Part shown: piece after piece, positions 1,266 to 60,800 of the stretch
Numbering within the stretch: the stretch's first letter is position 1
Layout of the letters: each line of letters starts with the position of its first letter
Assembly (NCBI GenBank): GCA_965198225.1
Contig: CBDAOY010000004.1
Span: forward strand, 96,001-160,000
Source of the DNA: Terriglobia bacterium
Lineage (GTDB): Bacteria; Acidobacteriota; Terriglobia; 20CM-2-55-15
Direction of reading: 5' to 3'
Length of the DNA stretch: 64,000 nucleotides
Position numbers and translations under genes: made by a program
The notes under the pieces: generated by a model
Seen by the model: only the letters and a program-made list of their open reading frames with translations
What the model was told of the DNA's origin: nothing
Databases searched by the model: none

Positions 1266-1367
1266 AGAGGACCGTATCCTCCCGTTGCATGGAGCTCATG
1301 TTTCCCAAGAACGAGTCCACTTCTGCTGGCCGCTTCCCCATGTGATCGGCTCTCCCGACCTCGGAGT

Positions 1368-7845: not shown

Positions 7846-8081
7846 CGGCAGGACCAAACCTGCGCCGCCCTCTCGGAACCGAGACCGTGGGTGCCACCGG
7901 CAAGGCGCCCGGCGTTGTCGGTAAAGGCGCGCCAGCCAACGCCGGATTGTAGCGCCCCTGATTTCTTGGACAGAGAGAACACAGCATAATCAAGCTGCGG
8001 GGAGGCAAAATATTGTGGTCGGCTGGTCGACCAGCTGGCCGGTTCACACGTGCTTTGGAACAGCCTTAAACTCAGCAACGT

Positions 8082-8699: not shown

Positions 8700-9244
8700 G
8701 TAATCAATTCGTGGCCGTTTGGGCACCATGGCGGCGCGCTGTCCCAATTGAACCCCCTCGGCTCCGCGTTCGGTAACCGACTGATTTTGCTGGTGCGATA
8801 TTTGTCCAGAACAGACTAATGTTCAACTGGGACGACATCGCATGCCAAGACGCCAGACCAAGATTACGGAAATCTAGTTCGCATACTTTCGTGGAAGGAG
8901 CTTGGCGATCTTCCTCTAGAGCGGCCCGATCCCCTCCTGCACGTTCTTGTTTATCGTGTCGATCCGGCTGTTCAGGCGTTGCTCAACACCGCCGATCTCC
9001 TGACGCAACTCCCGGCGCAACTCACCCATCTCCTCACGCAACCCGTCGATCTCCTGCTTCGTTGATTCTTGAATCGGCCGGAAGCGGGTGGCGCGCCTGA
9101 TGAAAGCGGCCGGTCTGGAGGGCGCCAGCCGCCGCAAACGGGCTCGGACGACGGTTCGGGATCGCGATGCCCGTCCGGCTCCGGATCTGGTCGATCGGAA
9201 TTTTCAGGCGAAGCATCCGGACGAACTCTGGGTGGCCGACATCA

Positions 9245-11452
9245 GTGCGCCATGAAGGCGCGGTTGGAGGAATCCAGCCAAGCTGGCTGGTTTCTGACCG
9301 GCAGTTGAGATACTGCCCCACTCGGTCAGGGAGCCGAGTGGAAGGGGGTTGCAAAGCTTCGCCATATGCCGATGGCGGGGTGTCATGAGCAGCGCAGCCT
9401 GAACTGTACCAGACGCGATCCATTCATCGTGGGCTGGGCTACCGCAGGACCTATGGCGAGACAACGAAGCATGCGGGGGAAGCCCCTGTATTTAGCCGGA
9501 CAACCCTCGTAACGGAATGGATTGGGGGGATGTGGTGCGAACTGGCCGGACTTTATGTTTCCGGCTGGTGGCTGCGTCGGACGCTGCCGATGATGGGAGT
9601 TCCCCATTGCCATCATCCAGAGCCACCAGGGGTAGAGCATGCCACCTACAGGGTCCACAGGTTGGGAACCGGAACATGGGAACCCGCCATCTTCCGCCCG
9701 TAAACGGATACGGGCTAACCGCGGCGGTCGGCGAAGGAAGGCGGTGGGGGCGGAGTCTCCGTAGTAGTCCGAGACCGGGAAAGCCGGTTACATGGCGAAG
9801 GGAGACAGGGAGTCGATAAGCTTTCGAAGCCGGAGGAGCGATCTGTGGACACAGATCAACGGGCGGACCGAGCCTGGTTACTCGGCGTGCAGCGGAAGTT
9901 GTATCAATGGAGTCGGGAACACCCCGGCGAAACGTATCGTGAACTGTGGAATTGGGTGACCGATATCCGCAACTTGCGGTGCGCCTGGAATCGTGTGTCC
10001 CAGAATCGGGGCCACCGCACACCAGGTATCGACGGGCAGACGGTAGGAAAGATTCGCCGCAGGTTGGGCGAGGAAGCCTTCCTGGAGGGGCTACGCTGCG
10101 AACTGCGGGCGGGGGCATTCACACCCAGTCCGTGTCGCCGAAAGCTCATTCCCAAGGTAGGCAAACCGGGGCAGTTCCGACCTCTGGGGATTCCTACGGT
10201 CACCGACCGCGTGGTGCAATGCGCGGTCAAACAGCTTCTGGAGCCGATAGTCGAAGCGCGGTTCTGGCACGTCTCGTACGGTTTTCGACCGGGTCGAGGA
10301 TGTCACGGCGCTTTGGAGCATATTCGGATGGCAATGCGACCGCGACGACGGAACGACGCGGACGGCAAACGTCACGATCCCCCTTACCAATGGGTGATCG
10401 AAGGCGACATCAAGGGTTGCTTCGATCATATCGATCACCATCTGTTGATGAACCGGGTGCGTCGGCACTGCGGGGATCGCAAGGTGAATCGATTGCTCGT
10501 GCAGTTCCTGAAAGCCGGCGTTCTGGCGGAGGATCAGTTCCTCAGAACTGATGCCGGGACGCCGCAGGGAGGAATCATCTCGCCGCTGCTTGCGAACATC
10601 GCGCTCAGTATCATCGAGGAGCGGTACGAGCGGTGGGTGAACCACCAGACCAAGCGTCAGGCACGACGGACATCGAGCGGGATCAAGGCGGCGCTGGAGG
10701 CTCGGAGCACGGATCGCCGGTCAGGCCGGAACGTGTTCTTCCCGATCCGGTACGCTGATGATTTCGTCGTACTCGTCTGTGGGACTGAAGCTCAGGCTCA
10801 GGCTGAACGGACAGCATTGGAAGCAGTGCTGATGGACAGCATGGGATTGACTCTGTCACCTGAGAAGACTCGAATCACTGCCTTAACGCGAGGATTCGAG
10901 TTTCTCGGACACCGCGTGCGACTGCGTTGGGATCCTCGATACGGCTGGACGCCGCGCGTCGAGATTCCGAAACACAAAGTCGCCGATTTGCGCTATCGGG
11001 TCAAACAGTGGACCGGTCGCGCAACGACGCCTTGGCCTTTGCCGAAGTTATTTCGGAAGCTGAATCCCATCCTCCGTGGTTGGGCGCACTTCTATCGTTA
11101 CTGTACCGGGGCCAAGAAGATTCTCTTCAGTCTCGACTGGTATGTTCGAGATCGGCTCTGGCGTTGGCTACGGAAGAAGATGCCGAAGGCGCAAGTCTCA
11201 TCGTTGTTGCGGTTTCGGAAGCCGAGTTCGATCCGTCCTGCGTGGCGGGTCTGGCGAGACGGCCGATCCGAACAGTTTCAGATGGGATGGCTGACGGTTC
11301 AGCGCTACCGTCGCGGCTGGATGCGAGCCCCCGACTTTACATGGACTTCTGGAGAGCCGGATGCATAACGAAAGGTGCACGTCCGGTTCGGCGAGAGGGC
11401 ATGCGAAACCTCCGCTGGTTAACAGCGGCTCGGCGCGCATGCCCTACTCAAC
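9245..11452 (+). mobile_element. Group II intron (class A-like) inserted in the DITY codons of the IS3 transposase
   Basis: GTGCG start; domain V GAGCCGGATGCATAACGAAAGGTGCACGTCCGGTTC; end CTACTCAAC; splicing restores GAC ATC ACC TAC. Confidence 0.92.
9845..11368 (+). CDS. ltrA: Group II intron reverse transcriptase/maturase
   Basis: RPLGIPT, GDIKGCFD, GTPQGG, RYADDF; QRKLYQW N-terminus. Confidence 0.95.
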   Translation: MDTDQRADRAWLLGVQRKLYQWSREHPGETYRELWNWVTDIRNLRCAWNRVSQNRGHRTPGIDGQTVGKIRRRLGEEAFLEGLRCELRAGAFTPSPCRRKLIPKVGKPGQFRPLGIPTVTDRVVQCAVKQLLEPIVEARFWHVSYGFRPGRGCHGALEHIRMAMRPRRRNDADGKRHDPPYQWVIEGDIKGCFDHIDHHLLMNRVRRHCGDRKVNRLLVQFLKAGVLAEDQFLRTDAGTPQGGIISPLLANIALSIIEERYERWVNHQTKRQARRTSSGIKAALEARSTDRRSGRNVFFPIRYADDFVVLVCGTEAQAQAERTALEAVLMDSMGLTLSPEKTRITALTRGFEFLGHRVRLRWDPRYGWTPRVEIPKHKVADLRYRVKQWTGRATTPWPLPKLFRKLNPILRGWAHFYRYCTGAKKILFSLDWYVRDRLWRWLRKKMPKAQVSSLLRFRKPSSIRPAWRVWRDGRSEQFQMGWLTVQRYRRGWMRAPDFTWTSGEPDA

Positions 11453-11840
11453 CCTACGTGCCCACATGGGCGGGTTTCCTGTATCTGGCCGTCGTTGTCG
11501 ACGTTTTCAGTCGCCGTGTGGTTGGCTGGTCGATGGCGAATCATCTGCGCACCGCACTCGTCTTGCAAGCGATGAACATGGCGATCTGGCAACGCCGCCC
11601 CGAGGAAGTCATTCATCACTCCGACCAAGGCACGCAATACACGTCGATCGCATTCGGACATCGCTGTAAGGAACTCGGCGTGCGACCATCGATGGGATCT
11701 GTCGGGGACTGCTATGACAACGCCCTATGTGAGAGTTTCTTCGCCACCCTGGAATGCGAGCTTCTCGACCGGAATAGTTTCCGCTCTCATGCCGACGCGC
11801 GGATGGCGATCTTTGACTTCATCGAGGGCTGGTACAGCAG

Positions 11841-12138
11841 TTTCAAACCTTGGCTTGAAACCCAACTATGAAACTGTCCACGAAAGCGGGGTAACTCCAG
11901 ATCACTTACCTTTTTTGTTTTGGGGTGATTCACTTTTTTTGATGATTCTTGCTTCGGCATTCGTCGCTGGACTATCTGTCACCGGCCTGCTACGAGCAGC
12001 GGTTTCAAACCTTGGCTTGAAACCCAACTATGAAACTGTCCACGAAAGCGGGGTAACTCCAGATCACAGATTCCACGATCCGCACTTACCTTTTTTGTTT
12101 TGGGGTGATTCACTTTTTTTGATGATTCTTGCTTCGGC
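11841..12138. repeat. Scrambled direct duplication of the IS3 right end and flank
   Basis: ~11841-11958 repeated at ~12003-12138. Confidence 0.85.
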
Positions 12139-12152
12139 TTTTTGGGCCTCCG

Positions 12153-12449
12153 CTATGCTCGATTTTTGTTGAATTCGGACTCTACGCCTTTCGACTCGGG
12201 AGACGATTTTTGTTGAATTCGGACTGGAGGACCACCCCGCACGGGATCAATTCCATCGGGCAGATGCTCCTTTAGGCGCGCGGTAACTCGACCTCTCTTT
12301 GCGACACCGACATAGAGAAGGTTCCTCTTGTCGTCCTCGATCGACCGTCTTGTCCTTTGCGAGGCCTTCAACCCGTAGACGACCGTCTTGTCCTTTGCGA
12401 GGCCTTCAATTCCTTCGTTGTCAAATTTACCGCTCTTCTTGCTAGGCAT
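12153..12449 (-). CDS. Small GIY-YIG-like protein, possibly disrupted
   Basis: VVYGL...LLYVGVAKRGRVTARLKEH; short internal duplication. Confidence 0.55.
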   Translation of the reverse strand: MPSKKSGKFDNEGIEGLAKDKTVVYGLKASQRTRRSIEDDKRNLLYVGVAKRGRVTARLKEHLPDGIDPVRGGPPVRIQQKSSPESKGVESEFNKNRA

Positions 12450-12832
12450 ACCTATCTCCTTTGTGACTTATGACGTAAAGACCTTGTTCTGAAGCCACCC
12501 CCGTAGTCCTCTCTAGGGCGACCAAACGATTCCGGTCTGCGACTCCCGGGTTTATACACGCACCTTTCGACTTCTAAGATTATGGGGCCGGACCATCGAG
12601 TCTACCGTAGTGCTTGACTTCTTCGATGCTAAGAGTGGCGAGTTGCTGGCCTAGCAAGGGTACAACCCAGATTCGTGTAGAGTCGACGACTGGCGCGGTA
12701 GCGTCTCATCGCCGCCGCTACGACCACCAACCGTCGACCCTTTCCGGGCACATGCCCCACGCGCGAGTCCACCGGCGACTGGGCCGGGGTCGCCGCCCGC
12801 TGTGGAGATCGTTGAGTGAACCACGGATCCCG

Positions 12833-13624
12833 TTAGAACGCGTACCGCAAGGACATGCTGACGCTATGGAGGGATAGGTCCGCTGTCGTTGCGCCAAGAT
12901 CCAATGCAAGAGGTCCACGGCTCCGGTCCTGCCAGACGACGTGGCCGACGGCTTGCCCAGTTTCGACCGCCCCCATATCCGAATAAGACCAAGCGAAATC
13001 GATCCGCCAGTTTTCCGTCAGCGATGTCGCCAGTCCCGCCGTCAGCATCCACGCGGCATTGACCCGTTGGCCGTTCGGAACGATCGTCGTTGTGCGGGGA
13101 AAAATCATACGCATTTCGGCGATCGTGACTCGGGAGACGCCGGCGCCGATGCCGGCGAAAGGCATGAATCGATGGTAACTGATTTCAGGAAAGTCACGAT
13201 GAATCGCAAGCATCCCCGAGAGTGAGGACAAATCGGCTGTGACACTCTGTTCGGTTGCGGTTTGGACGAAATTAGCCCGGCCTTGGAAGGCGAAGTTCGG
13301 GCGATAACGAAGAATGGCTTCCAACCGTACAGCTGACTCGAGGGCATAGCCCACCCCGAGTTCGACACCGCCTGTCCTTGCAAAATTCCCAACGGAACCG
13401 ATCGGAGTGCCATCCACTCCGGTTCCGCACCCATACAGGGCGGCCGGGGAGATGCTGGAACAGTCGGTGTCCCGAAATCGCGTCGTACCAAGCCAGTCCA
13501 GGACCAGCCCCGTCCGGACATACATGCCGTCCGAAGGCTCCTGCGCGACGGCGATGTTCGGGACACCGACTGCGATCAGTGTCAGGGCCATAGCCACCCG
13601 GCAACCTGATGACAACAACTTCAC
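12833..13624 (-). CDS. Outer-membrane beta-barrel protein (opacity/porin-like)
   Basis: Signal peptide, PFAGIGAG, terminal LRYAF. Confidence 0.8.
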   Translation of the reverse strand: MKLLSSGCRVAMALTLIAVGVPNIAVAQEPSDGMYVRTGLVLDWLGTTRFRDTDCSSISPAALYGCGTGVDGTPIGSVGNFARTGGVELGVGYALESAVRLEAILRYRPNFAFQGRANFVQTATEQSVTADLSSLSGMLAIHRDFPEISYHRFMPFAGIGAGVSRVTIAEMRMIFPRTTTIVPNGQRVNAAWMLTAGLATSLTENWRIDFAWSYSDMGAVETGQAVGHVVWQDRSRGPLALDLGATTADLSLHSVSMSLRYAF

Positions 13625-14344
13625 CGTAAGTCCTTTCCTACCGTCGGGTCGGGAGGGTTGGGGTGCATCCAGTCCTCACGGGTGCACTAAAGGTATAGAG
13701 TTGCTCCCTAACGGGCTTCACGGCCCACCCTCCGTTGCTTGGCTACTGGTGCTTGGATCAGTTCGATCGACAGGATCTGTCGCACGAGTTCGAGGATTTC
13801 TCCGAACGACATGCCTCGACCCCGGGCGGCGGCGTGTTCGCGCAACAGTTTCGCCGCGGTAGCACCAGCCTTGCGCCAGCGTAATCTGGGAAGGTCGCAG
13901 CAGACGTCGTCGAACGTCTCGTAGTCCAGACAAATGGGGATTACGAAGTGTCTTCTACCTTGTTCCTGGTCCGACGTACGGGCGGCTTCTTGCCAGGGTT
14001 TCCGCTCTTTTCCATGTATTTCTGTCCGAGCTTCATCCCGAATGCTCCCGCCAACAGGTACGTGATGTGGACCCCATCCACCGCCGCTGGACCCATGGCG
14101 GCTCTCACCGCCATCATCCCGATCGCCCGCCAGCAAAGCGATGAGCGACATGAGTCTGGCTGTGGAGGCTTGCCCGGCATCATCTGACAAAATCTGTTTG
14201 AGGAATTCCAACACTTTGGAGTCACCGCTATGCTCGATTCTTGTTTAATTCCAACTTTCGCTCCATCACGGGTTGTTTGCGGGATGGGGCGAAATCCTAC
14301 GGTAAACGGGTGCTCGGTCAACAGTGGGGTCTTCCGGCTCAGGA

Positions 14345-14430
14345 GGCGAGGGCTTTCTGTCTCGACTTCGAAAGCGCGGTCTGCGGGGTGTGGAGTTCGT
14401 GATGACCGAAGACCATGCCGGGTTGGAGCT
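14345..14430 (+). pseudogene. IS256 transposase fragment
   Basis: FLSRLRKRGLRGVEFVMTEDHAGL. Confidence 0.65.
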
Positions 14431-14596
14431 CGGCGGCGAGCTCGACGTTCAGATCAGACCGGGAAATCTATTGTCTTTTCAGGACGAATATCGATTGATC
14501 GTTGGACAGTGCACCGGGAAACAAGGCGGGGGCAGATTGAAACGATGTCTGTGAATCGCACATCTTCACTTTTCAGTGATCGTTTACACTGCTGAC

Positions 14597-14752
14597 TGGC
14601 CGAGCGGCGACCGGCATGACACGGCGTGAAACCGGCGGGAGGCTCTCGGGCGGAACGTGGGAACCTGGCGCTCCGATGCCAAGGGAGACCTCCAGACGGC
14701 ACCCACGAGAAGCCGAGTACCAATGTGGAGCGCAGGGACGGCCGGGTCTGCC
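14597..14752 (+). mobile_element. Class D-like group II intron RNA relic (3' part of domain I and domain II)
   Basis: GCGGAACGTGGGAACCT...CGATG..AAGGGAGA shared with the introns at 52400 and 54282. Confidence 0.65.
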
Positions 14753-45868: not shown

Positions 45869-47584
45869 CAGACTGTGTGAAAAGTCCAAGTCGTGGATCG
45901 CTGATCCGGCAACACCGAAGGGCAAGCACGATGACGGACCCGTGGCGACGCAGATCACTCGGGGCTGCCAGCCTTTTCGGTGGCGTGAGGTGTTGCTGTG
46001 ACTGGGAAACGCGGGATGGAGGCGGATTGTTGCGCCAAAAACGGGCGGATTACCCGGTCAAACCGCTGCGACGGCAATCAAGGCGGGAATTCCTACGAGG
46101 TTGATTGCGCGGCGCATGTTGTAGGCCAAGGCGGTGAGGCTGAACTCCCCGCGGACATTGCCGAGTCGGCGCGTCAGGAACGCGCCTTGGCCCATCCACT
46201 GCTTGATCGAACCGAAGGGATGCTCGACCGACTCCCGGCGACGATCCATCACCTCGGGCCGGGCGGCGAGACGGTTCGCCATGCGCTCCATCGTTGCTTC
46301 GTTCTCGAAGCGCGTGATGCGCCGATAGGTGTTCTTGGTACATCGTTCGCGTAGACCGCAGCCTCTGCATGCGGCGCGGTTGGCGTAACTGACAAGATAC
46401 GTGCCTGTGCGCGACTTACCGACGCTTCCGCGATACAACGGCACCAGGCGCTCACCAGCGGGGCACCGGTAGGTGTCCGTGGAGTCGTCGTATTGGAAAT
46501 CGGACTTCGGAAAGTGGCCACTGCGTCTGGCCGTGCTCCGGTCGGGCTTCGGAACGTAGGGCGTGATCCCGGCGGCTTCGCAGTCCTCAATGTCTTCGAT
46601 CTTGTAGTAGCCTCGGTCCGCGACCGCGTCGATCTCGTCGACAGCCAAGTTCTCCCGAGCCGCTGTGGCCGTCTCCGCGAGCAGACCGAGGTCCGAGACC
46701 TTGCTATGGACCTGCTGTTCGGCGATCAGGTTGTGCTCAGTGTCGACAGCGATCTGGACGTTGTAGCCGACTCCGACCCGTGTCCCGGAATGCATTGACC
46801 GGGAGTCCGGATCCGTAAGCGACAGCTGGGCTTCTCCGGTATCGTCCAGCGTCTGCCGATGCCCCTCCAAGGTCTCCTTTCTCTTACGGATCGATGCGAT
46901 CTTCTCCTGAAGATCCGCCACGGCAGCCGCTCTGCCGCCGGCATCATCCGCGTCGGCCTCGTTCACCTGGTCGAGGTAGCGGTCGAGTCGGTCGTCGATA
47001 CGCTGCAGGTCCGTCTTCAGCTTGGCCCGCGTGAAGTTGCGGTCCCGGTGGTTCACCGCCTTGATGCGCGTGCCGTCCACGGCGATCAACTCCCGCCCGT
47101 ACAGGTCGAGTTCCCGGCACAACCGCACGAACCGCCGAAACACCGCCCGGAACGCATGCCGATTGTCGCGCCGGAAGTCGGCGATCGTCTTGAAGTCGGG
47201 CTTCAGCTGGCGTAGCAGCCAGATCGCCTCGAGGTTGCGATGCGTCTCTGTCTCCAGCCTGCGGCTCGACCGAATACGATTCAGATACCCGTAGATATAC
47301 AGCTTCAGCAGATCCGCGGGATCGTAGCCTGGACGGCCCTTGTCGTTGGGCCGAACGCGCTGGAATCCAGCCGCCTCAAGGTCGAGACCGTCGACGAATG
47401 CATCAATGAAACGGACCGGGTTGTCCGGTCCCACGTAGTCGTCCACAGTATCGGGCAGAAGCAGAAGCTGGGAACGGTCTTCACCGGTGATATGTGCCAT
47501 GACACATTTTACCAACCGCCATGGGGAACCTGATGCCAGTTCACCGACTCCCGCCCGGCTGTCGCCGACTTTTCACACAGTCTG
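45869..47584 (-). mobile_element. IS1182-family element, full length
   Basis: IRs CAGACTGTGTGAAAAGTC at both ends; intact 485-aa ORF. Confidence 0.93.
46058..47515 (-). CDS. IS1182-family transposase
   Basis: GRPGYDP, SSRRLE, PDFKTIADFR, VDGT, TDPD, ADRGY, VEHPFGSIK. Confidence 0.93.
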   Translation of the reverse strand: MVKCVMAHITGEDRSQLLLLPDTVDDYVGPDNPVRFIDAFVDGLDLEAAGFQRVRPNDKGRPGYDPADLLKLYIYGYLNRIRSSRRLETETHRNLEAIWLLRQLKPDFKTIADFRRDNRHAFRAVFRRFVRLCRELDLYGRELIAVDGTRIKAVNHRDRNFTRAKLKTDLQRIDDRLDRYLDQVNEADADDAGGRAAAVADLQEKIASIRKRKETLEGHRQTLDDTGEAQLSLTDPDSRSMHSGTRVGVGYNVQIAVDTEHNLIAEQQVHSKVSDLGLLAETATAARENLAVDEIDAVADRGYYKIEDIEDCEAAGITPYVPKPDRSTARRSGHFPKSDFQYDDSTDTYRCPAGERLVPLYRGSVGKSRTGTYLVSYANRAACRGCGLRERCTKNTYRRITRFENEATMERMANRLAARPEVMDRRRESVEHPFGSIKQWMGQGAFLTRRLGNVRGEFSLTALAYNMRRAINLVGIPALIAVAAV

Positions 47585-49543: not shown

Positions 49544-49799
49544 GGAACGGGTCCTTATGTTGTATTTCAACGTGCGCCGTGAGAAGGCGCCAATCCTCAG
49601 CGGGTGCGAATCCCGCCCGGCAACTGTCGCTCCAGTCGGTAGCAATCGGAGCGGATGGTGGAGGTAACAACATCGTCTGAAGCACTCCGATGACAAAGGG
49701 CCGCCTCGGGCGGCTCAGCGACCACACAGGCCACAACGCGAGTAAACGCCGAGCAGGCCTCGTATGTGGACGCCCCCCTGGTTGGCAAGCCTGACTTCG

Positions 49800-50130
49800 A
49801 ACCGAGGATCGGTGGCATTCAGGTCAGGTACGGTCGTATGTGCGGCCTCTTGATGCGGCACTTGCTGGCCGCGGGCCCGTATGGTGTTCGTGAGATCGGA
49901 TCCAAATCGAAACGACGGGCTCGATGGCCCTTCGAGGCCTACTGGGTTTTCCGATCCCGTCTTGTCGACCGTTTGCCCCTACCTTGTCCGACGTCCTGCT
50001 TGCACTCTCCAGTTGGAACCTCCGTGGCCCGTGTCCATCCGCCCAGGCGGCCAGCCGAACGATTTCCTCTCTCTTCTCCGCGTTTCTGATCTCGCCGACC
50101 CTTCTTCGCTCCACTGATCTGACTCGCAAC
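49800..50130 (-). ncRNA. Predicted bridge RNA/seekRNA of the IS1111 element (ends approximate)
   Basis: Stem-flanked internal loops carrying target-matching (49907-49914, 49931-49940) and donor-matching (49834-49842) segments. Confidence 0.8.
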
Positions 50131-50131
50131 C

Positions 50132-51178
50132 CTACGCTGCAGCCGCAACGGCCTTTGTCATTCCCCGTGCCCTGTAGCTCTCCTCCTTCACCGTCATGGC
50201 CCAGATGATGCGTGCCATCCTGTTGGCCAGAGCCACCGCAACCACCTTCCTCGGCTTTTCGTCCAGCATCCGGCCAAGCCAGGGATCGGTGACCTTCCTC
50301 CGCCGGATGGCACTCGAGATGACCGCCGTCGCCCCCAGGTACAGGAGCCTCCGGATGTCGCGCTGTCCCATCTTTGTGATCCCTCCCAGCCGTTGGCGGC
50401 CACCCGTCGAGGATTCACGCGGCGTGATCCCGACCCATGCCGCAAAGTCACGTCCATTACGGAAGCTCTCCATCGGTGGCGCGAACGCGTGCACCGCCAT
50501 TGCCGTGAGCTCTCCCACCCCTGGAATCGTCATCAGGCGCCCGAGCGCCTCATCTTCCCTCACGATGCGACGGATCTCCCGGTCCAGCTCATCGATCTCC
50601 GCATCCAGATCGTGGGTCCGCTCGATGAGGCGGCGTATGGCGGGAGGCACCAGCGCCGGGAAACACTCTTCACGCTCCGCGAACACCTCCTCCAGCCTCC
50701 CGACGTTGTGGGTCCCAAGCGGAGCGACGAGTCCAAACTCCGCGAGATGACCCCGCAGCGCGTTGATCGTCTGTGTCCGCTGGCGCACCAGCAGTGCCCG
50801 GGCCCGGAACACCACCGATCGTGCCTGCTCCTCCTCGGTCTTCACGGCCACGAACCGCATCGTCGGCCGCTGGGCCGCCTCGACGATCGCTCCCGCGTCG
50901 TTGGCGTCATTCTTCTGCCTCTTGACGTACGGCTTCACATACATCGGGGGAATCAGGCGGACCTCGTGACCGATCTCCTGGATCATCCGCCCCCAATGAT
51001 GGGCGCTGCCGCACACTTCCATCACGACCCGGCAGACAGGCTGCTTGGCGAGGAACTCGAGTAGCTTCGGGCGCGTGAGCTGCCTGCGCAGCACAGGCTC
51101 ACCGCTTGCCGTGGCTCCATGCAGTTGGAAGTACCTCTTTGAAATGTCGATGCCGATGATGGTGATCACCTTGCCCAT
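50132..51178 (-). CDS. IS110-family DEDD recombinase/transposase
   Basis: IGIDISK, VMEVCG, KNDANDA, TIPGVG, SSTGGR. Confidence 0.95.
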   Translation of the reverse strand: MGKVITIIGIDISKRYFQLHGATASGEPVLRRQLTRPKLLEFLAKQPVCRVVMEVCGSAHHWGRMIQEIGHEVRLIPPMYVKPYVKRQKNDANDAGAIVEAAQRPTMRFVAVKTEEEQARSVVFRARALLVRQRTQTINALRGHLAEFGLVAPLGTHNVGRLEEVFAEREECFPALVPPAIRRLIERTHDLDAEIDELDREIRRIVREDEALGRLMTIPGVGELTAMAVHAFAPPMESFRNGRDFAAWVGITPRESSTGGRQRLGGITKMGQRDIRRLLYLGATAVISSAIRRRKVTDPWLGRMLDEKPRKVVAVALANRMARIIWAMTVKEESYRARGMTKAVAAAA

Positions 51179-51577
51179 GTATCCCTCCCTCTATCGTGTT
51201 CTGAACGCACCCCTTGTGCGTTCTGCTGACCCGGCCCATTCTGCCGCCGGGGAGCGGGGGCGTCCACTCCATCGAAACGCACAATGCGGAAGCCGACCCG
51301 CCGTTGAAACGGGGAAGGCTGCCAGCGGTCGGGAAGCGAGCGACGCGAGCACCGACTGGTTCCGCCGGGGTATTGGGCGGTGGCATGTATGGAAGAGGGG
51401 ATTGGACGCAACACGGGAAGCCCTGCCGGTGGCGTGGCACGCGCCAACCGACAGCCCGCGAGGGTCAGGTTGGGCCGACAGGGTGGCGGAGAGGTCCGCA
51501 GTACCAAGAAAGCCGGGTAATGCCGCGTGGAGGGAAGGGACCTCAGTTCGAGAGCAGCGCATGACGGAGGAAGGGCC

Positions 51578-52399
51578 ATGAGGACTGGCGAGAGCCTAAC
51601 AGCCTCGGAGAGAGTTCAGCGACTCCAGACGGCGCTACATGTAGAAAGCGAAGGAAGCCCTGGGCTTCCGGTTCTACTCTCTGAGCGACAAGGTGTGGCG
51701 CGACGACGTGCTCGCAGTCGCCTGGCAGGCCGTGCGACGCAACGGCGGCGCGACACGGGGTGGACGGCGAGACGGTCGCGGACATCGATGCGTTCGAGGT
51801 GGACCGGTGGCTGGGAGCACTGGCGCGGGACCTGAAGGAAGGGACCTATCGGCCGCATGCGGTTCGGCAGGTTCTCATCCCGAAGAAGCAACGAGGGAAG
51901 TTCCGGCCGTTGGGCATTCCGTGTCTCCGGGATCGGGTGGTGCAGACGGCGGCGATGCTGGTGTTATCGCCGATCTTCGAAGCCGACCTGCAACCGGAGC
52001 AGTATGCGTACCGGCCGGGCCGAGACGCGCATGACGCAGTCAGGCGCGTGCATCGGCTGCTGACGACGGGCCACCGGGAGGTGGTGGACGCCGACCTGTC
52101 GGACTACTTCGGCCAGATTCCGCACGCGGACCTGATGAAGTCCATCGCCCGGCGTGTGAGCGACGGGCGGCTGTTGGGCTGGGTCAAGGCGTGGCTGGAG
52201 ATGGCGGTGGAAGAGGACGACGGGCGCGGCGGTCGCCGCCGCACGAACCGGGCGCGTCACGAGCGGAAGGGGACCCCGCAAGGGTCTCCGATCTCGCCGC
52301 TGTTCAGCAACATCTACATGCGGCGCTTCATTCTGGGCTGGAAGGTGCTGGGCTACGCCCGGCACTTCAAGGCGGAAATCGTCAACTACGCGGATGACT
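51578..52399 (+). pseudogene. RT of intron A, frameshifted near the 5' end and cut immediately after YADD
   Basis: VQRLQTALH, RPLGIP, DADLSDYF, GTPQG, NYADD|. Confidence 0.9.
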
Positions 52400-54281
52400 G
52401 TGCGCCACGACGGTGCGTAGAGGAGGCGGTCATGTAGACGCCGAATCGACACAGCCTTGCTGCACGAGAGATGAGGGCGGGCCCCTCGGACTCGGGGTGC
52501 AGGCCCAGGGTCCAAACCGCCGGATGCTGCTCGGACCAAACGGCCGGGGTGGTGAGCGAGACGGAAAAGGCGGGACAAACCCGTCAGGTGAGCGATGGGA
52601 AGACGAACGTGAGTGAACCGCTGATGACGTGTCGAAAGCGTAGGGACGCCATCGAAACCAAGCTCCAGTCGTTGGCCTGGGATGAAGCTCGGGAGGAGCC
52701 TGTTGACTGCCCGAGCGGTGGCCGGCATGAAGGCGGCGTGAGCCCATTGCAGGCTCTTGTGCGGAACGTGGGAACCTATCGCCTCGATGTTAAGGGAGAA
52801 ATCCAAGTGGAGGACCCACAAGGATGAGAATACCGATGCGAGGCGAAGGGGCGGATGGGCTTGTAGGAGCGAAGAAGCCTGGTAATGCGGGTGGAGCAAA
52901 GGGGCCCAACTCTCTGGCCAAGGACGCCGGTCAACCAGCGATGGGAGGAGCCGGTGTCTGAGGCAAAGCCTTATGTGATTCCAAAGCAACTTGTCTGGGA
53001 ATCGTACCAGCGGGTGAAGGCGAACCGCGGTGCAGCGGGCGTGGACGGTGAGTCGCTGGCGGCGTTGGAGAAGGACCTGAAGGGGAATCTCTACAAGGTC
53101 TGGAACCGGATGTCGTCGGGCTCGTACTTCCCGCCGCCCGTGCGGCTCGTTGAGATACCGAAGGATAACGGCGGCAAGCGCCCACTCGGTATTCCCACTG
53201 TTGCCGACAGAGTGGCGCAAACGGTCGTGAAGATGGTGTTCGAGCCCTTGGTGGAGCCGGTATTCCACGAGGACTCGTACGGCTATCGCCCCGGCCGGTC
53301 TGCGCTCGATGCGGTGGGAGTGGCGAGGAAGCGCTGCTGGGGCGCGGATTGGGTCATCGACCTGGACATCAAAGCCTTCTTTGATTCCATCCCGCATGAC
53401 CTCATTGAGCGCGCCGTGGCCCACCACACTGACCTTCCGTGGGTCCGTCTGTACGTTGCGCGGTGGCTTCGTGTCGCTGTGCAGCGGCCAGACGGGATCC
53501 TGGAGGAGCGGACGACGGGCACGCCGCAAGGCGGAGTCGTCAGTCCGCTGCTGGCCAACCTGTTGCTGCACTACGCGTTCGACCTCTGGATGCAAAGGAC
53601 CTTTCCGAGCGTCCAGTTCGAGCGGTATGCGGACGATGCCATCGTCCATTGCAGGAGCGAACGGCAGGCGCGAGCAGTATTGGAGGCCATTCGGGGTCGG
53701 TTCGAGCAGTGCGGTTTGGAGCTTCATCCTGTGAAGACCCGTATCGTTTACTGCAAGGACGACGACCGGCCTGGGGACTACGAACACGTCAAGTTCGACT
53801 TCCTCGGGTACACCTTCCAACCTCGGCGGGCGAAGAATCGCTGTTGGAAATTCTTCGTGAGCTTCCTACCGGCGATCAGCGCCAAGGCCGCCAAGAAGAT
53901 CCGGGCCACCATCCGCGAATGGCGGATGGCGTCCACCAGGAACAACCAGCGTCTGGAGGACTTGGCACGGCTCATCAACCCGTCGGTACGTGGCTGGATG
54001 AACTACTACGGACGGTTCTACCGGTCGAAGTGTGTTCAGGTCCTTCGCCATCTCAACGAGGCCCTCGCGGCATGGGCGCGATGGAAATACAAGCGGTTTC
54101 GGCGACGTGAGCGTGCGTCGATGCACTGGCTGGGGCGCATCGCGCGACGGGACAGGCAGCTGTTTGTCCTGTGGCAACTCGGCATCGTACCCGAGGCTGG
54201 AGAGTAGGAGCCGGATGAGGCGAGAGTTTCACGTCCGGTTCTGGGAGGGCCCGGGGGGGAAGTTCCCCCGGGCTACTCGAC
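52400..54281 (+). mobile_element. Group II intron B (class D-like), complete
   Basis: GTGCG start; domain V GAGCCGGATGAGGCGAGAGTTTCACGTCCGGTTC; end CTACTCGAC; EBS1 AGTCGT at 52667-52672. Confidence 0.92.
52954..54207 (+). CDS. ltrA: Group II intron RT/maturase (RmInt1-like)
   Basis: VKANRGAAGVDG, WNRMSSGSYFP, GTPQGG, ERYADD. Confidence 0.95.
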   Translation: MSEAKPYVIPKQLVWESYQRVKANRGAAGVDGESLAALEKDLKGNLYKVWNRMSSGSYFPPPVRLVEIPKDNGGKRPLGIPTVADRVAQTVVKMVFEPLVEPVFHEDSYGYRPGRSALDAVGVARKRCWGADWVIDLDIKAFFDSIPHDLIERAVAHHTDLPWVRLYVARWLRVAVQRPDGILEERTTGTPQGGVVSPLLANLLLHYAFDLWMQRTFPSVQFERYADDAIVHCRSERQARAVLEAIRGRFEQCGLELHPVKTRIVYCKDDDRPGDYEHVKFDFLGYTFQPRRAKNRCWKFFVSFLPAISAKAAKKIRATIREWRMASTRNNQRLEDLARLINPSVRGWMNYYGRFYRSKCVQVLRHLNEALAAWARWKYKRFRRRERASMHWLGRIARRDRQLFVLWQLGIVPEAGE

Positions 54282-54749
54282 GTGTGCCACGAGCACTGAC
54301 GGGCGCAAGTCGGGTCAGTGCGCAACTGTTTCACTGATGAGGGAGGGCCCCTCGGAGCCGGCGTGCAGGAGCCGGCTTCAAACCACCTTCGGTGGCTGTG
54401 GTTAAAAGCCATGGTCGTGAGCGCAGAAGGAAAAGGCCCGGGAAGAACCGGGTCAGGTGGCTGGCAAGAAGAGGACCGCAAGGGAATCACTGATGACGTG
54501 TCGAAAGCGTAGGGACGATGTCAGAACCGTGGGGAGTCATTACCGCGGGATCAGTTCAGACGAGAATCTGCTTACGGGCTGAGCGGCATCCGGCATAAAG
54601 GTGGCCTGAGCTTGTCGAGAGGCGGTGAAACGGAACGTGGGAACCTGAGATTCCGATGCTAACGGAGACGCCACAAGTGGAAGAACCACGAGGGCCAGAG
54701 TACGAACCATCCTGGCTCGCGGAGTCTCAGGGGCGGAATGGCCCGTAGT
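54282..54749 (+). mobile_element. Group II intron C (class D-like), 5' part up to domain III
   Basis: GTGTG start directly after intron B; shares CTGATGACGTGTCGAAAGCGTAGGGACG with B; EBS1 AGTCAT at 54535-54540. Confidence 0.85.
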
Positions 54750-55331
54750 GCGTGCCTGGCAGCACGCGTTTCCGGCGGGTTAAAGTCCCGCTCGGCCCGA
54801 GGCCACGGGTCGATATCCAACAAGTGGGGGTAATGCCTCACTGGCCGGAGTGTAGGCAGGTATGGCAAATGCCTAAACGGGCACGAAGGCGAAAGCCGGA
54901 CACGGACAAGGCAAAGCTGGAGCCACCTACGGAAACTTTGGAGGGCAGGGCGCCCACCGCGAGGTGGGGTCTGAAGGGCATGAGGAGAACCACCGGGTCG
55001 TAATCGACGGGAGCCATCCCGAGGATGAACCGGTCGGCCAAAGATGGGGAATGGTCGAGCCCGCACTATTGGGGCGAAGGCGCATTGGTTCCACCCCATC
55101 GCACCAAGGTGTGTGCGGGCGACACGGTGGGGAAGAGACGCGAGTGACCCAGGGAGGCCTGGTATCGTCCGAGCGGAAGGTAAGGTCGAGATGATGTGGC
55201 ACCCAAGGCAGACGAAAGGGCGGGCAACCGAGAAGACAAACATCGACCTAGAGCCCTGCGCGGTAGGTGCGGATATAAGCGAGAGCGAAATTCCGGCCGA
55301 CGCGGTGTCAGGAATCGGATCGGGGAATAGT
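54750..55331 (+). mobile_element. ORF-less intron, variant copy, 5' part up to its own domain III
   Basis: Paralog of ~55332-55910 with about ten differences; broken at GGAATAGT|. Confidence 0.85.
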
Positions 55332-56235
55332 GCGTGCCTGGCAGCACGCGTTTCCGGCGGGTTAAAGTCCCGCTCGGCCCGAGGCCACGGGTCGATATCC
55401 AACAAGTGGGGGTAATGCCTCACTGGCCGAAGTGTAGACAGGTAGTGCAGATGCCTAAACGGGCACGAAGGCGAAAGCCGGATACGGCCAAGGCAAAGCT
55501 GGAGCCAGCTACGGAAACTTTGGAGGGCAGGGCGCCCACCGCGAGGTGGGGTCTGAAGGGCATGAGGAGAACCACCGGGTCGTAATCGACGGGAGCCATC
55601 CCGAGGATGAACCGGTCGGCCAAAGATGGGGAATGGTCGAGCCCGCACTATTGGGGCGAAGGCGCATTGGTTCCACCCCATCGCACCAAGGTGTGTGCGG
55701 GCGACACGGTGGAGAAGAGACGCGAGTGACCCAGGGAGGCCTGGTATCGTCCGAGCGGAAGGTAAGGTCGAGATGATGTGGCACCCGCAGACGAAAGGGC
55801 GGGCAACCGAGAAGACAAACATCGACCTAGAGCCCTGCGCGGTAGGTGCGGATATAAGCGAGAGCGAAATTCCGGCCGACGCGGTGTCAGGAATCGGATC
55901 GGGGAATAGTACTCAGGAACGAGACGGCAAACATAAGGTCTCGGATCGTTGCTTCGAGCAGCGGCGCTGGCGGGTCCAAAAGGCCCGTTGGAGGGGGAAG
56001 TCCCCGTACTCAGTCGTGAATGTGCGAGCGATGGGAAACGCGGAGATATCGTGGAATTGGATAGTTCCCTTAGCGAAAGACCCAAACGCGGTACGAACGA
56101 AGCCGCCACCTGCCGCCACACAGCGAATTCCGAACGAGGAGCAACTGAGGAAAGCGGCTTGCGGGAAAACCGCACGAGCCGTTTGATTGAGCGGACGGTG
56201 GAAGGGCCGATCGGCCCGACCACTTTCGACTCTAC
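55332..56235 (+). mobile_element. ORF-less group II intron, complete (~0.9 kb)
   Basis: GCGTG start, domain V at 56151-56184, end GACTCTAC, no RT; EBS1 ACTATT at 55647-55652. Confidence 0.87.
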
Positions 56236-57771
56236 ACTCCGAGGTCGGGAGAGCCGATCACATGGGGAAGCGGCCAGCAGAAGTGGACTCGTTCTTGGGA
56301 AACATGAGCTCCATGCAACGGGAGGATACGGTCCTCTATGCAACGAGAGGAACAACCAGTCATGGAAACGAAACTGGAACGAATAGCGGCGAAAGCTCGG
56401 AGTGAGCCAAAGCTCCGGTTCACGTCACTGGCGCATCATGTCACCCGAGAGCGTGTGTGGAAGAACCTGTGTCAAGTGCCCCGCAACACGGCTCCCGGAT
56501 GTGATGGTCAGAGGGTACCGGAGGCGAAGGAGGAATTCGGAGTCTGGGTGGAGCCAATGCTCCAGTCTGTTCACCAGAAGGGATATCGCGCTCCGCCGAT
56601 TCGGCGGGTGTATATCCCCAAGCCCGGCAAGCAGGAGAAACGTCCCCTGGGCGTGCCCTGTGTTCAAGATCGGGCCCTTCAGCGCAGCGTGGCCGAGGTA
56701 TTGGTCGCCATCTACGAGCAGGACTTCTTGCCCTGTTCCTTTGGTGGCCGGCCTGGGCTGGGCGCCCACAATGCACTGGCAACCCTCCATGAGGTGATTT
56801 CCGGATGCAAGGTGAGTTGGGTGTTGGAGGCGGACTTGAAGAACTTTTTCGGGAGTTTAGACCATGGATGGCTACTCCGCTTTGTGGAGCATCGAGTCGG
56901 AGATCCGCGGATCATCAGTCTGATACGACGATGGTTAAAGGCGGGCGTTTTCGAAGACGGGGAATTGCATTCGAACGAAGAGGGAACCCCGCAAGGTGGG
57001 TCGATCAGCGTTCTGCTGAGCAATCTGTACCTGCATTATGTGCTTGACCTGTGGTTTGACCGGATGGTCCGGCCACGCCTGAAGGGTGAAGCGTATCTGG
57101 TGCGGTACATCGACGACTTTGTCGTGTGTTTCCAATATCGGGACGATGCGCTTCGTTTCCAGAACGTTCTGCGCAAGCGACTGGGAAAGTTTGGACTGGT
57201 TCCGGAGCCGACCAAGACGAAGCTCGTCGAATTCGGCCGCTATGCCCAGCGCGATGTCGTCCGGCGCGGGAGAAAACGTCCAGAGACGATCTATTTTCTG
57301 GGCATGACCCTGTACTGTACGCGTAATCGCAAAGGCAATTTTAGAGTGGGACTGCGAACAGAGAAGTCTCGACTTCGACGCAGTCTGGCTCATCTACGCG
57401 GCGTGATGAGGCGAATGCGTCACTTGCCGGTCCGGGAGCAAGTGCACAATCTGAACCGAGTCTTGCGCGGGCACTACGCCTACTATGGCATTGCCGGGAA
57501 CCTCCGGGCTCTGCAGCACGTCGCTCGGGCCGTGGAACGTTACTGGCGCCAAATGCTCAGCAGTCGTAGTCGTGCAGGCTTCGTCCGGTGGGAAGTATTC
57601 AACCGGATTCAGCTGCACTTTCCGTTACAGCGTCCCAAGTTGGCTCTCCGCTATCGGGAGTTCCAGTCTCTCGCTGTGCTGTAAATCCAATTCTGAAGAG
57701 CGCAGTGCGGGAAATCCGCACGCTGCGTTCTGTGGGAGCCGGAGGCGGGCAACTGCCTCCGGCCACCCGGT
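56236..57771 (+). mobile_element. Class E-like intron, 3' part (domain III to end)
   Basis: Resumes ACTCCGAGG; domain V GAGCGCAGTGCGGGAAATCCGCACGCTGCGTTC; end CACCCGGT. Confidence 0.85.
56338..57684 (+). CDS. ltrA: Group II intron RT/maturase (class E-like)
   Basis: RFTSLAHH, RPLGVP, GTPQGG, RYIDDF. Confidence 0.95.
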   Translation: MQREEQPVMETKLERIAAKARSEPKLRFTSLAHHVTRERVWKNLCQVPRNTAPGCDGQRVPEAKEEFGVWVEPMLQSVHQKGYRAPPIRRVYIPKPGKQEKRPLGVPCVQDRALQRSVAEVLVAIYEQDFLPCSFGGRPGLGAHNALATLHEVISGCKVSWVLEADLKNFFGSLDHGWLLRFVEHRVGDPRIISLIRRWLKAGVFEDGELHSNEEGTPQGGSISVLLSNLYLHYVLDLWFDRMVRPRLKGEAYLVRYIDDFVVCFQYRDDALRFQNVLRKRLGKFGLVPEPTKTKLVEFGRYAQRDVVRRGRKRPETIYFLGMTLYCTRNRKGNFRVGLRTEKSRLRRSLAHLRGVMRRMRHLPVREQVHNLNRVLRGHYAYYGIAGNLRALQHVARAVERYWRQMLSSRSRAGFVRWEVFNRIQLHFPLQRPKLALRYREFQSLAVL

Positions 57772-57880
57772 GCGACTGGAAACGAAGCCACGGCGAGGAG
57801 TGAGGCACCGGAATCGGCGAAAGCCACCGGCAACAGCTACCCCCTTTGCCTACCGCCACCGCGCCAGTCGTCGACTCTAC
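57772..57880 (+). mobile_element. Orphan domain VI and 3' end of an outer group II intron
   Basis: GCGACTGG...CCAGTCGT stem ending CGACTCTAC. Confidence 0.75.
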
Positions 57881-60800
57881 AACGGATGGGTTGAAGTTCT
57901 GGGTACAGGGCGCGTTACAGGTTTTCTCGCATACTCGGAATCCAATGCCGGCGGTGTTGCCGTCGTTCCGGTCCAGAATCAACCCGGCCCGCGACTCCTA
58001 TTCGGGCACATCGCTGCGCGCGTTCCATGGTCGACCGGTATAGCGGTCCTGAACGCGACAGCGACGGACACAGTCGTCGAGTTTTTTGCCATCACACCCG
58101 GCGGCGCCTTGATGGGCGGTCCCGAAGAGTCACCGCTTGCCCGCGTCGAACTTCCCTCAGGAACCAAAATTGCCAAGCTCATCAATGAATTGATACCGAA
58201 CACAGAGGGCCTAGTGGCGGACGGGGGCTTCGTCTATGCCCGAACGACGAATGATGTCGAGATCTATGGAATCGAACTGTTTTTCCTCCGCAACCTCTTT
58301 GTCTTCTCCAACGTGTCTGCGGACATCAGCATTCCGTTCGAACCGCCCGTAAGAAACCTCCCGATGCCGATGGACGGGACGTTGACGCCGGGCGACCTGC
58401 TGGCGGGGACGATCGACGCGCCGGGCGAGGTCGACGTGGTGACCCTGGCTGGGCAGACCAACGACAGAATCGTGTTGACGTTGGTCGAGACGACGGACTG
58501 GGGCGGCTTCCTCGGGGCGAATGATGTGCAGGCGACGCTGTTTGCGCCGAGCGGCGCCGAGCTCGAGGTGTTCGATTCGGACAGCCAGCAGCAGTTCACG
58601 CTCGCGGAGACGGGCGTCTACGTCATCCAGGTGAATGCGAACAACCTGGTCAGCACGGGGTCGTACACGCTGGGGCTGGAGCGGCTCGACCCGGTGGGGC
58701 CGCTCGACGGGACCTTGACGCCGGGCGACCTGCTGGCGGGGGCGATCGACGCGCCGGGCGAGGTCGACGTGGTGACCCTGGCTGGGCAGACCAACGACAG
58801 AATCGTGTTGACGTTGGTCGAGACGACGGACTGGGGCGGCTTCCTCGGGACGAATGATGCGCAGGCGACGCTGTTTGCGCCGAGCGGCGCCGAGCTCGAG
58901 GTGTTCGAATCGGACAGCCAGCAGCAGTTCACGCTCGCGGAGACGGGCGTCTACGTCATCCAGGTGAATGCGAACAACCTGGTCAGCGCCGGGTCGTACA
59001 CCCTGGGCCTGGAGCGGCTCCACCCGTTGGGGCCGCTTGACGGGACGTTGACGCCGGGCAACCTGCTGGCGGGGGCGATCGACGCGCCGGGCAAGGTCGA
59101 CGTGGTGACCCTGGCTGGGCAGACCAACGACAGAATCGTGTTGACGTTGGTCGAGACGACGAACTGGGGCGGCTCCTTCGGGGCGAATGATGTGCAGGTG
59201 ACGCTGTTTGCGCCGAGCGGTGCCGAGCTGGGGGTGTTCGATTCGGACAGCCAGCAGCAGTTCACGCTCGCGGAGTCAGGCGTCTACGTCATCCAGGTGA
59301 ACGCGAACAACCTGGTCAGCATCGGGTCGTACGCCGTGGGGCTGGAGCGGCTCCACCCGGTGGGGCCGCTGGACGGGACGTTGACGGTGGGCGACCTGCT
59401 GGCGGGGGCGATCGACGCGCCGGGCGAGGTCGACGTGGTGACCCTGACTGGGCAGACCAACGACATAATCGTGGTGACGTTGGTCGAGACAGGGGCGAAT
59501 GATGTGCATGCGAGGCTGATTGCGCCGAGCGGCGCGGAGCTCGGGGTGTTCGCGGACGTCGGGCAGCAGTTCACGCTCGGGGAGACGGGCGTCTACATCA
59601 TCCAGGTGAGCACGAACGACCTGATCAGCACGGGGTCGTACACCCTGGGGCTGGAGCGGCTCGACGCGGCCTGTAGCGCAAGCCGGCCTTGCTTTACCGA
59701 CGTGACCGCGCAGGCCGGCCTCCTTCAAGGCCCGCCGCCGGATGGCCTGCCGTTCGCCCAGGTGACCGACGTCATGACCGGAGCCGCCGCCGCCGGGGAC
59801 ATTGATAATGACGGCAACGTAGATTTGTATGTATCCCGAATCGATGCCCTCGATTCACTCTATCGAAACAAAGGCGATGGAACGTTCGAGGACATTGCGA
59901 CCGCTTCCGGTATCAATCGCGGCAGCAATTCCAACGGGGCCGCCTTCGGCGACATCGACAACGATGGCGACCTGGACTTATACGTAACCGCCGTGTCGTC
60001 CGCCGAACGAGGCACCCAAACTAGATTCTATTTGTATGTCAATGACGGCCGTGGCAATTTCAGTGAAGAAGCGATTAGTCGCGGTGCGGCGATTGCAGGC
60101 GCCGATGCACATCAGGGCTGGAGCGTGGCGTTCGGGGACTACGACAGTGACGGATACTTGGACATCCACGTCTGCGAATGGCGACTGGACTCCTTGAATT
60201 CCAGCGCTGCGCTGTCCAATTCGAGGCTTCTGCGGAACCTCGGCAGCGCTAATCCCGGAGCGTTTGAGGACGTCACAGTAGAGGCAGGTGTCGCTCTCGA
60301 CGCGGTCCAGGGCAAGTTGCGCGATCCGCAAAGAGGAACGTTCAGTTTCAGCTCAAACATCGTCGACATGGACGGCGACAGCCATCCAGACCTGATTATC
60401 GCGGCAGATTTCGGCGAGAGCCGCCTGTTCTGGAACAACGGGGACGGAACATTCACGGACGGCACCGCAGCCGCGGGAGTCGGTCTCGATGAGAACGGCA
60501 TGGGCTCGGCCGTCGGCGATATCAACGGTGATGGTCTCCTGGATTGGTTTGTCACGTCGATCTCAGGAGGCCTTTTACCTCCGTACACCGGTAACTTCAT
60601 GTACCTCAACAACGGCGATCGGACCTTCACTGACTATACCGAGGCGGCCGGCGTGCGGGACGGGTTCTGGGGATGGGGCGCGACTTTCCTGGACTATGAC
60701 AACGACGGCGACCTGGATCTGACGATGGTGAACGGGTTTCCGAACTCTGTGTTCAGCCTGATCTCGTGTTGCAATCCGATGCGGTTTTGGGAAAACGATG

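Follow-up and report, generated by a model that had tools for sequence, protein, structure and literature searches.

Spliceosomal introns and retroelements are both presumed to descend from group II introns, and therefore what limits or drives the spread of the latter in genomes is a standing question. Here we describe a stack of group II introns and insertion sequences (ISs) inside a single group II intron, which we call A, in 64,000 nucleotides (nt) of a Terriglobia bacterium genome (hereafter the window; GenBank assembly GCA_965198225.1, contig CBDAOY010000004.1, positions 96,001 to 160,000). The arrays of Methanosarcina acetivorans offer a close counterpart. As summarized in the review of Zimmerly and Semper (PMC4424553), these arrays (Dai and Zimmerly 2003) hold up to five nested introns and arose as introns homed time and again to specific sites in other group II introns, open reading frames (ORFs) among them, offset by deletions through homologous recombination; there were no host coding exons to protect, and the arrangement was termed a 'perpetual homing site'. 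On the account given in that review, the core of our proposal, intron-into-intron arrays trimmed by recombination and a sink that serves as a perpetual homing site, is already published.

Other described systems share single features with the locus. In Thermosynechococcus elongatus, the twintrons reported by Mohr et al. (2010; PMC2882425) consist of ORF-less introns that are mobilised in trans and occupy one conserved site in ORF-containing introns. Inner copies there are identical and outer copies diverged, which that report reads as independent insertions; it also describes one intron family that targets an IS and one intron with a non-G 5′ residue. The Trichodesmium twintron (Pfreundt and Hess 2015; PMC4649490) is presented as one functional twintron located in a conserved gene, for which sequential splicing was demonstrated. 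Elements of the IS1111 group are described by Durrant et al. (2024; PMC11208160) as having a DEDD recombinase, a short left and a long right end, and subterminal inverted repeats, and the reference list of that paper includes members directed at Tn21 inverted repeats, attC sites and REP elements. Searches of open-access text gave us no paper linking IS110 or IS1111 elements to intron targets, which does not prove that none has been published.

The Terriglobia locus is very probably a graveyard-like nest of selfish elements on one copy of A, put together by homing, guided IS insertion and trimming by recombination. Its elements were delimited by BLAST of the region against the 6.4-Mb assembly of the same genome (nine contigs); Rfam supplied the ribozyme blocks, Pfam the protein domains and the BLAST map the boundaries. 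Because every element is also present elsewhere in this genome, intact or in other contexts, the boundaries are sharp. Window positions 49572-57880 are one group II intron with other elements inside, and 49572 and 57880, which an initial annotation made from the sequence alone had placed exactly, are the two ends of A. Rfam located 5′ ribozyme blocks at 49598-49741 (RF02003), 52473-52589 and 54339-54458 (both RF01999), and domain V-domain VI (DV-DVI) structures at 54206-54281 and 57696-57771 (RF00029). Pfam located an IS110-family transposase at 50132-51178 (minus strand), a reverse transcriptase (RT) fragment at 51760-52437, and full RT-maturase ORFs at 52885-54207 and 56338-57684.

All elements lie on the plus strand except the IS. 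The locus opens with nt 1-191 of A (49572-49762; domain I, 5′ end GTGCG), which carry the RF02003 match and are 100% identical to an intact A copy in the same genome. Next comes IS1, 1,509 nt of the IS110 family and IS1111 group on the minus strand (49763-51271), recognized by its DEDD_Tnp_IS110 and Transposase_20 domains. A resumes with nt 189-1314 (51272-52399), which comprise the rest of domains I-IV and the RT ORF as far as the YADD codons plus T; exon-binding site 1 (EBS1), GUUGAAA, lies at 51303-51309 and the RVT_1 match at 51760-52437. It is followed by B, a complete intron of 1,882 nt (52400-54281; RF01999 and RF00029) with an intron-encoded protein (IEP) of 440 amino acids (52885-54207; RVT_1 and GIIM) and EBS1 AGUCGU at 52667-52672, and by the 5′ 468 nt only of a B-like intron, C′ (54282-54749; RF01999), with EBS1 AGUCAU at 54535-54540. 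Then come two copies of intron X that form a 97% direct repeat: the first 582 nt, without DV-DVI (54750-55331), and a complete, ORF-less copy of 904 nt (55332-56235; GCGUG...CUCUAC; EBS1 ACUAUU at 55647-55652), delimited by 20 5′ junctions in the genome and by uninterrupted hosts. The last invader is intron D, represented by nt 399-1934 (56236-57771) with a 448-amino-acid IEP (56338-57684; RVT_1 and GIIM) and DV-DVI (57696-57771; RF00029); full D 5′ parts occur at six other loci. The locus closes with nt 1886-1994 of A (57772-57880; domain VI and 3′ end CUCUAC), again 100% identical to the intact copy.

This order agrees with the sequence of elements in the initial annotation and departs from it in detail. 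The ORF-less copies number 1.64 and not two, as 0.64 of X precedes one whole X; the segment 55911-56235, which had been given to a downstream 3′ part, belongs to the second X copy with its own DV-DVI; and the supposed orphan domain VI is simply A's own last 109 nt. At the gathering score, Rfam assigns A to RF02003, B and C′ to RF01999, and the D 5′ part at window 2570-2804 to RF02005; X gives only sub-threshold RF02001 matches (E 0.09-0.11), and its DV-DVI, at about 56153-56235, was recognized only by eye. RVT_1 and GIIM domains are encoded in B, D and the parent of X, and RVT_1 in the truncated A ORF; X itself is ORF-less. A, B and C′ begin with GUG(C/U)G, D with UUGCG in all genomes seen, and X with GCGUG after an exonic GU.

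Comparable nests are found at about ten other loci of the genome, whose intron families number at least seven, with IEPs 30-39% identical pairwise. Set beside the M. acetivorans arrays as reviewed, the locus shares precise intron-in-intron boundaries at recurrent sites, and here we infer deletion from missing segments. It differs in being in a bacterium with at least seven such divergent intron families, in its strict hierarchy (A is host to D and C′, these two are hosts to X, and X is host to X), in the constancy of the DV-DVI linker as the site of D across genera and host intron types, and in the participation of putatively RNA-guided IS elements. With the T. elongatus introns, as far as described in that report, it shares trans-mobilised ORF-less introns, identical inner and diverged outer copies, and a non-G 5′ residue; there, however, the target lies between two IEP start codons, whereas here elements enter at the YADD codons, in the DV-DVI linker and at the border of domains III and IV, and nesting reaches three levels plus self-insertion of X. 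As in the published Trichodesmium twintron, domain I of a group II intron houses an unrelated element, which there is another group II intron; here the outer intron is predicted to be dead and several families are stacked at many loci. What appears to be additional in our locus is the number of families and nesting levels, the DV-DVI-linker niche of D, the host breadth, self-insertion and odd 5′ end of X, and IS1111-group elements putatively guided to ribozyme sequence.

Each invader occupies a short target. Four landing sites (domain I, the YADD codons, AUAGU and the GAGCG between DV and DVI) had been proposed, together with a matching guide in every invader, and both proposals held: the sites are as described, and the guides are EBS1, paired with intron-binding site 1 (IBS1), for B/C′, D and X, and two segments of the long end for IS1. 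A, B, C′, D and X each show an EBS1-IBS1 pairing of 5-7 base pairs (bp) with the 5′ exon; the loops are homologous, and for B/C′, D and X the pairing covaries in relatives. A itself occupies its own homing site, with a 5′ exon, UUUCAAC, that is complementary to its EBS1 GUUGAAA.

D lies at GAUGAGCG|GCGAC, between DV and DVI of A (A 1885|1886), and probably retrohomed into this linker through pairing of its EBS1 CGCUC with GAGCG. The two sides covary: the combination is CGCUC/GAGCG in genomes G000 and G020 versus CUCUC with GAGGG or GAGAG in five other genomes. Six full D 5′ junctions are present in the Terriglobia genome, four in A at 1885|1886, one behind a DV-like sequence and one at a non-intron site that carries the same AUGAGCG; X is present in all six D 5′ halves. 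Nucleotides 1-399 of D are 100% identical at five of the six loci, and the D IEP is 100% identical in six copies. As to the INDEPENDENCE of the insertions, the A hosts of D share 92-99.7% identity, compared with 100% for D itself. Because D copies are identical while their A hosts diverge, the argument that Mohr et al. made for T. elongatus, we favour independent homing of D. The D family was found in 8 of 34 family genomes, mostly directly behind DV hairpins of various host introns. When 12 D 5′ junctions were checked for an upstream DV fold, seven had a DV-shaped hairpin and a 7-8-nt linker directly upstream, four had a DV-3′-strand-like end only, and one was a non-intron site with the same IBS1. 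Site specificity thus extends across the D family, with the DV-DVI linker as its site in seven genomes, and D alone has the look of a lineage whose niche in introns is conserved. A second nest at window 1-2839 (minus strand; contig C4 95723-98839) contains D with X, then the last 109 nt of A; its D 5′ end adjoins a DV-3′-strand-like sequence (..GGGTTCCGGGAGCG) and not A. Elsewhere, at contig C5 815632-817038 (locus L003), an IS with a DDE_Tnp_1_4 transposase of 508 amino acids lies between two D copies.

X lands at ..AUAGU|AC.., where the sequence opposite its EBS1 loop ACUAUU is GAUAGU in D and AAUAGU in X; these pairs are replaced by ACUAUG/CGUAGU in genomes G020 and G047. Through this pairing with (A/G)AUAGU, X probably inserted behind ..AGU at the domain III/IV border of C′, of D and of X, mobilised in trans by the IEP of a full-length parent elsewhere in the genome. 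Such a parent, with an ORF for a 479-amino-acid IEP, is present at C5 501714-503867, C6 343788-345943 and C6 408309-409881, of which ORF-less X lacks about 1,250 nt. The genome contains more than 20 X copies at 96-100% identity. Twenty 5′ junctions distribute as six in D, two in C′, four in X, six in five other intron types and two in unidentified sequence; 18 of them, those inside other group II introns, follow ..AGU. Uninterrupted D-like introns read GAUAGUACUC at the X site (six loci), and since uninterrupted hosts keep GU before the site, the inserted unit starts at GCGUG and the preceding GU is exon. A start at GUGCG was considered and rejected, as uninterrupted D-like, X and C′-like hosts all retain this GU. 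GT at the internal junction is kept in 14 of 14 single X copies and absent from five of five second-half (downstream) junctions, and the X|C′ junction in G020 agrees with the same boundaries. Read this way, the X 5′ end, GCGUG, is unusual and mimics GUGCG.

The extra partial X fits insertion of X into X. At other loci, X occurs in first-half/first-half/second-half/second-half arrangements and in partly collapsed forms, and G020 has the same tandem. We also considered X as an obligate intron parasite; this found no support in G047, where none of seven X-family copies had a detectable host intron, a weak negative, since X itself is among the introns that Rfam overlooks. In G020 (L024, L113) and G046 (L114), which are genomes of other genera, D 5′ parts and X copies are 100% identical to those of the Terriglobia genome, which suggests recent horizontal transfer of these introns. 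The window holds a further group II intron at 9911-11452 (RF00029 at 11352-11452) whose IEP is 31% identical to that of the X parent; it is unrelated to the families of the nest.

B and C′ enter at GATGACT|, the YADD codons of A. Their EBS1 loop, placed by alignment with relatives, reads AGUCGU in B and AGUCAU in C′ and is complementary to AUGACU, the last six nucleotides of GAT GAC T; AGUCAU/AUGACU contrasts with UACUGU and a 5′ exon ending in ACAGUA in a relative in G015. C′ now sits behind the 3′ end of B, which mismatches the C′ EBS1. In public run X17, one contig joins 52399 straight to 54282 without B (shorter side, 27 nt), and because this joins the YADD codons directly to C′, C′ was probably first and B came later into a still-intact 5′ exon. 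C′ probably retrohomed into the DNA of the YADD motif, with B subsequently entering the same site just upstream. None of four B/C′-like introns examined in relatives is located at YADD, and the junction is unique to the A intron of this genome; we therefore rejected YADD as a family-wide target of B/C′. We likewise rejected the possibility that the C′ 5′ part and the downstream 3′ part are one intron, as the true D 5′ part is found at six loci and the true C′ 3′ half in G020. The G020 locus (contig C9, about 8000-14700; L021) has tandem 3′ fragments of B-like introns upstream of a C′-like intron, which itself carries an insert of about 2.4 kb in its RT coding region (approximately residues 160-216).

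IS1 shows the traits of the IS1111 group. Its transposase matches PF01548 (DEDD; 2.9e-15) and PF02371 (Transposase_20; 1.2e-21), its short end is 93 nt and its long non-coding end, downstream of the transposase, 369 nt, and a 12-bp subterminal inverted repeat, GTGGACGCCCCC, lies 3-4 nt from each end. This is the layout given for the group in PMC11208160 (short and long ends, subterminal repeats of 7-17 bp). IS1 landed at GGCCTCG|AAAC in domain I of A; the intact target reads GGCCTCGAAAC, and with IS1 inserted TCG is found on both sides. The long end carries AGGCCTCGAA and CGTTTCGA, 16 nt apart, at 49931-49940 and 49907-49914 around a small hairpin (49907-49940, minus strand). These guide-like segments match, over 10 nt, the A top strand left of the site plus the core and, over 8 nt, the bottom strand right of the site plus the core; of 500 shuffles of the long end, none reached both matches. 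A predicted fold of the long end places the guides around an internal loop, with a z-score of only 0.66. IS1 integrated into domain I, and its putative guides match both sides of the site, as in bridge-RNA-directed recombination. Like the described members of the IS1111 group, it has guide-like segments in the right end that match both target sides and repeated mobile DNA as its preferred target; unlike the targets of the members listed in PMC11208160, its own is ribozyme domain I of a group II intron.

All three IS1 copies in the genome are at the same A site, in A copies about 99.6% alike. An IS in another genome record (L045), 81% identical to IS1, has the same flanks within an A-type intron, and in a closer relative (L050) the altered first guide matches the altered flank of that element. 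A search of the other 33 family genomes turned up no IS1 DNA, and of 20 loci of IS1 relatives that were scanned only one borders an intron. An IS5-like DDE element at window 46058-47515 (copy in L010) truncates one IS1 copy. The genome also contains IS2, a second IS1111-type element of 1,455 nt in four identical copies. Two of these, at C5 608366-609820 and 744857-746311 (L001), interrupt A at GAAAGCCG|GGUAAUGC, a position within the GCCG|GGUAAUGC hairpin directly upstream of the IEP, and the other two are at look-alike sites elsewhere. The long end of IS2 has guide-like AAGCCG and TTACCCGG flanking a hairpin, in the same layout as IS1.

How general is this targeting? The idea of niche partitioning among intron parasites stood as far as repeated, guide-matched, site-specific insertion goes, and failed as general targeting of intron motifs, except for D. 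Likewise, insertion at these motifs is specific across the family for D, and within this genome for B/C′, X and the IS elements. Because none of the four B/C′-like introns in relatives is at YADD, none of the seven X-family copies in G047 has a detectable host intron, only two of four IS2 copies are in A and only one of the 20 loci of IS1 relatives touches an intron, the targets, D excepted, are best seen as short guide-matched sequences and not intron motifs as such. On these matches, invaders other than D are guided to sequences that, in this genome, introns mostly supply.

The nest has also lost DNA. Intact A is 1,994 nt long (C6 7952-5959; IEP frameshifted), and the A IEP in the window is spread over three frames. 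The nest is without A nt 1315-1885 (571 nt, including DV), the C′ 3′ half and D nt 1-398. At two other loci A continues for 571 nt beyond YADD to ...GAUGAGCG, where D begins UUGCGCC. The DV of the intact copy folds as a bulged hairpin and is absent from the window copy. The C′ 3′ half is absent from the whole 6.4-Mb assembly, and a C′-like intron in G020, 97% identical to the window C′ 5′ part and with X at the same place, retains its 3′ half and IEP. As C′ and D both bear X at a homologous position, recombination between direct X copies is the simplest history, and the missing A, C′ and D segments were likely lost when the X copy within C′ recombined homologously with the one within D. Such an event would have removed the C′ 3′ half, A nt 1315-1885 and D nt 1-398, leaving C′5′-X-X-D3′; we infer the order of events along the locus. 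The 'self-growing sink' of the initial annotation thus captures growth by insertion and is incomplete, since the locus also lost about 3 kb by recombination; a limit on intron spread, as also put forward there, is a hypothesis. With its DV gone and its IEP truncated and frameshifted, A is predicted to be no longer able to splice; B (intact), the second X copy (intact) and D (IEP ORF intact) are probably still able to act. Among eight A copies that retain at least 1 kb, seven contain a foreign element and the eighth is uninterrupted with a frameshifted IEP; that seven of eight substantial copies are interrupted fits the idea that invasions inactivate the host intron, without showing it. Scrambled, partly inverted A fragments lie at C9 902443-903254.

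Several points weigh against this account of the nest. The recombination step is deduced from absent segments, and splicing and mobility are predicted from DNA. 'Domain III' as a label for the X site is purely positional: the site lies 3′ of the Rfam D1-D4 block and some 100 nt 5′ of the IEP. Predicted folds of the IS1 and IS2 long ends do not exceed shuffled sequences in stability (z = 0.66 and -0.51, respectively). A near-identical composite (B 3′ part-C′-X-D3′-A end), 5′-truncated and abutting unique kinase-like sequence, recurs at C5 888811-892508, so part of the common structure was spread by duplication and not by fresh insertion. Finally, the public runs cover the junctions of the array only by short contigs, with less than 31 nt on one side of each junction.

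This last point bears on a possible assembly artefact, in which two loci (A with B and C′ at YADD, and A with D at the linker) were misjoined through X repeats. A misjoin would also produce an apparent deletion and a tandem X, and the repeats are nearly identical (more than 20 copies of X at 96-100%, six of D at 100%), with a join that crosses about 1.5 kb of X. We nonetheless consider it very unlikely: the C′ 3′ half, the expected leftover of a misjoin, is absent from the assembly; the C′5′-X-D3′-A end join is repeated at the second locus with different flanks; the assembly resolves many identical 2-kb repeats in its nine contigs; and the junction words A|B, B|C′, C′|X and X|D are present in contigs of four public runs.

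A true nest could still involve no real targeting, if one composite had been copied by duplication or gene conversion, junctions included, and the 'guides' were coincidental. The duplicate at C5 888811-892508, the near identity (about 99.6%) of A copies that bear IS1 and the confinement of the YADD junction to the A intron of this genome point that way. Against this, identical D copies lie in A hosts that differ by up to 8%, D-family members follow different DV hairpins in other genera, EBS1 and IBS1 covary separately for B/C′, D and X, the IS guide matches were reached by 0 of 500 shuffles, and the IS guide covaries with its flank in L050; coincidence is accordingly just as improbable an explanation as misassembly.

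The flanks of A raise the question of a host function. The 5′ exon (49557-49571) ends ATG TTG TAT TTC AAC, in frame with a 1,253-amino-acid FG-GAP/ASPIC ORF that resumes at 57881; if that ATG is the real start, the FG-GAP/ASPIC gene is split after codon 5 by an 8.3-kb insert that is predicted not to splice. The same 5′-exon words stand upstream of A at two other loci, where the 3′ flanks are unrelated and one gives a stop after nine codons. A tandem duplication of 333 nt (97% identity) lies within the FG-GAP ORF at window 58366-58998. That the host keeps the array for a function, such as staged splicing regulating the downstream FG-GAP repeat gene, would suit an intron placed five codons into that gene, but we regard it as the least probable explanation, because deletion of the catalytic DV and part of the IEP should leave the outer intron unremovable, the same exon words precede A elsewhere with unrelated 3′ flanks, in one case with the early stop, and nests of this kind recur at about ten loci.

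Returning to a nest built by guided insertion and trimmed by recombination, the genome offers a natural system with at least three levels of nesting, in which D homes to the DV-DVI linker of whichever intron it meets, X invades at least six intron types and itself, and IS guides match the ribozyme of an intron. The guide and target pairs are explicit, so each can be tested directly, and they provide natural examples of how mobile elements of both kinds, introns and putatively RNA-guided ISs, come to be redirected to other mobile DNA. A further step, which we propose only tentatively and hold to be somewhat doubtful, is that the D lineage, together with X and the two IS1111-group elements in this genome, are hyperparasites that live mainly on other group II introns by reading sequences fixed by ribozyme or RT function, and that mobile elements hold down the intron load. 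If this is true, short target words constrained by function would let hyperparasites move between unrelated host introns and between genera. Nearly every host intron copy would be disabled, and mobile elements would themselves curb the intron load of the genome.

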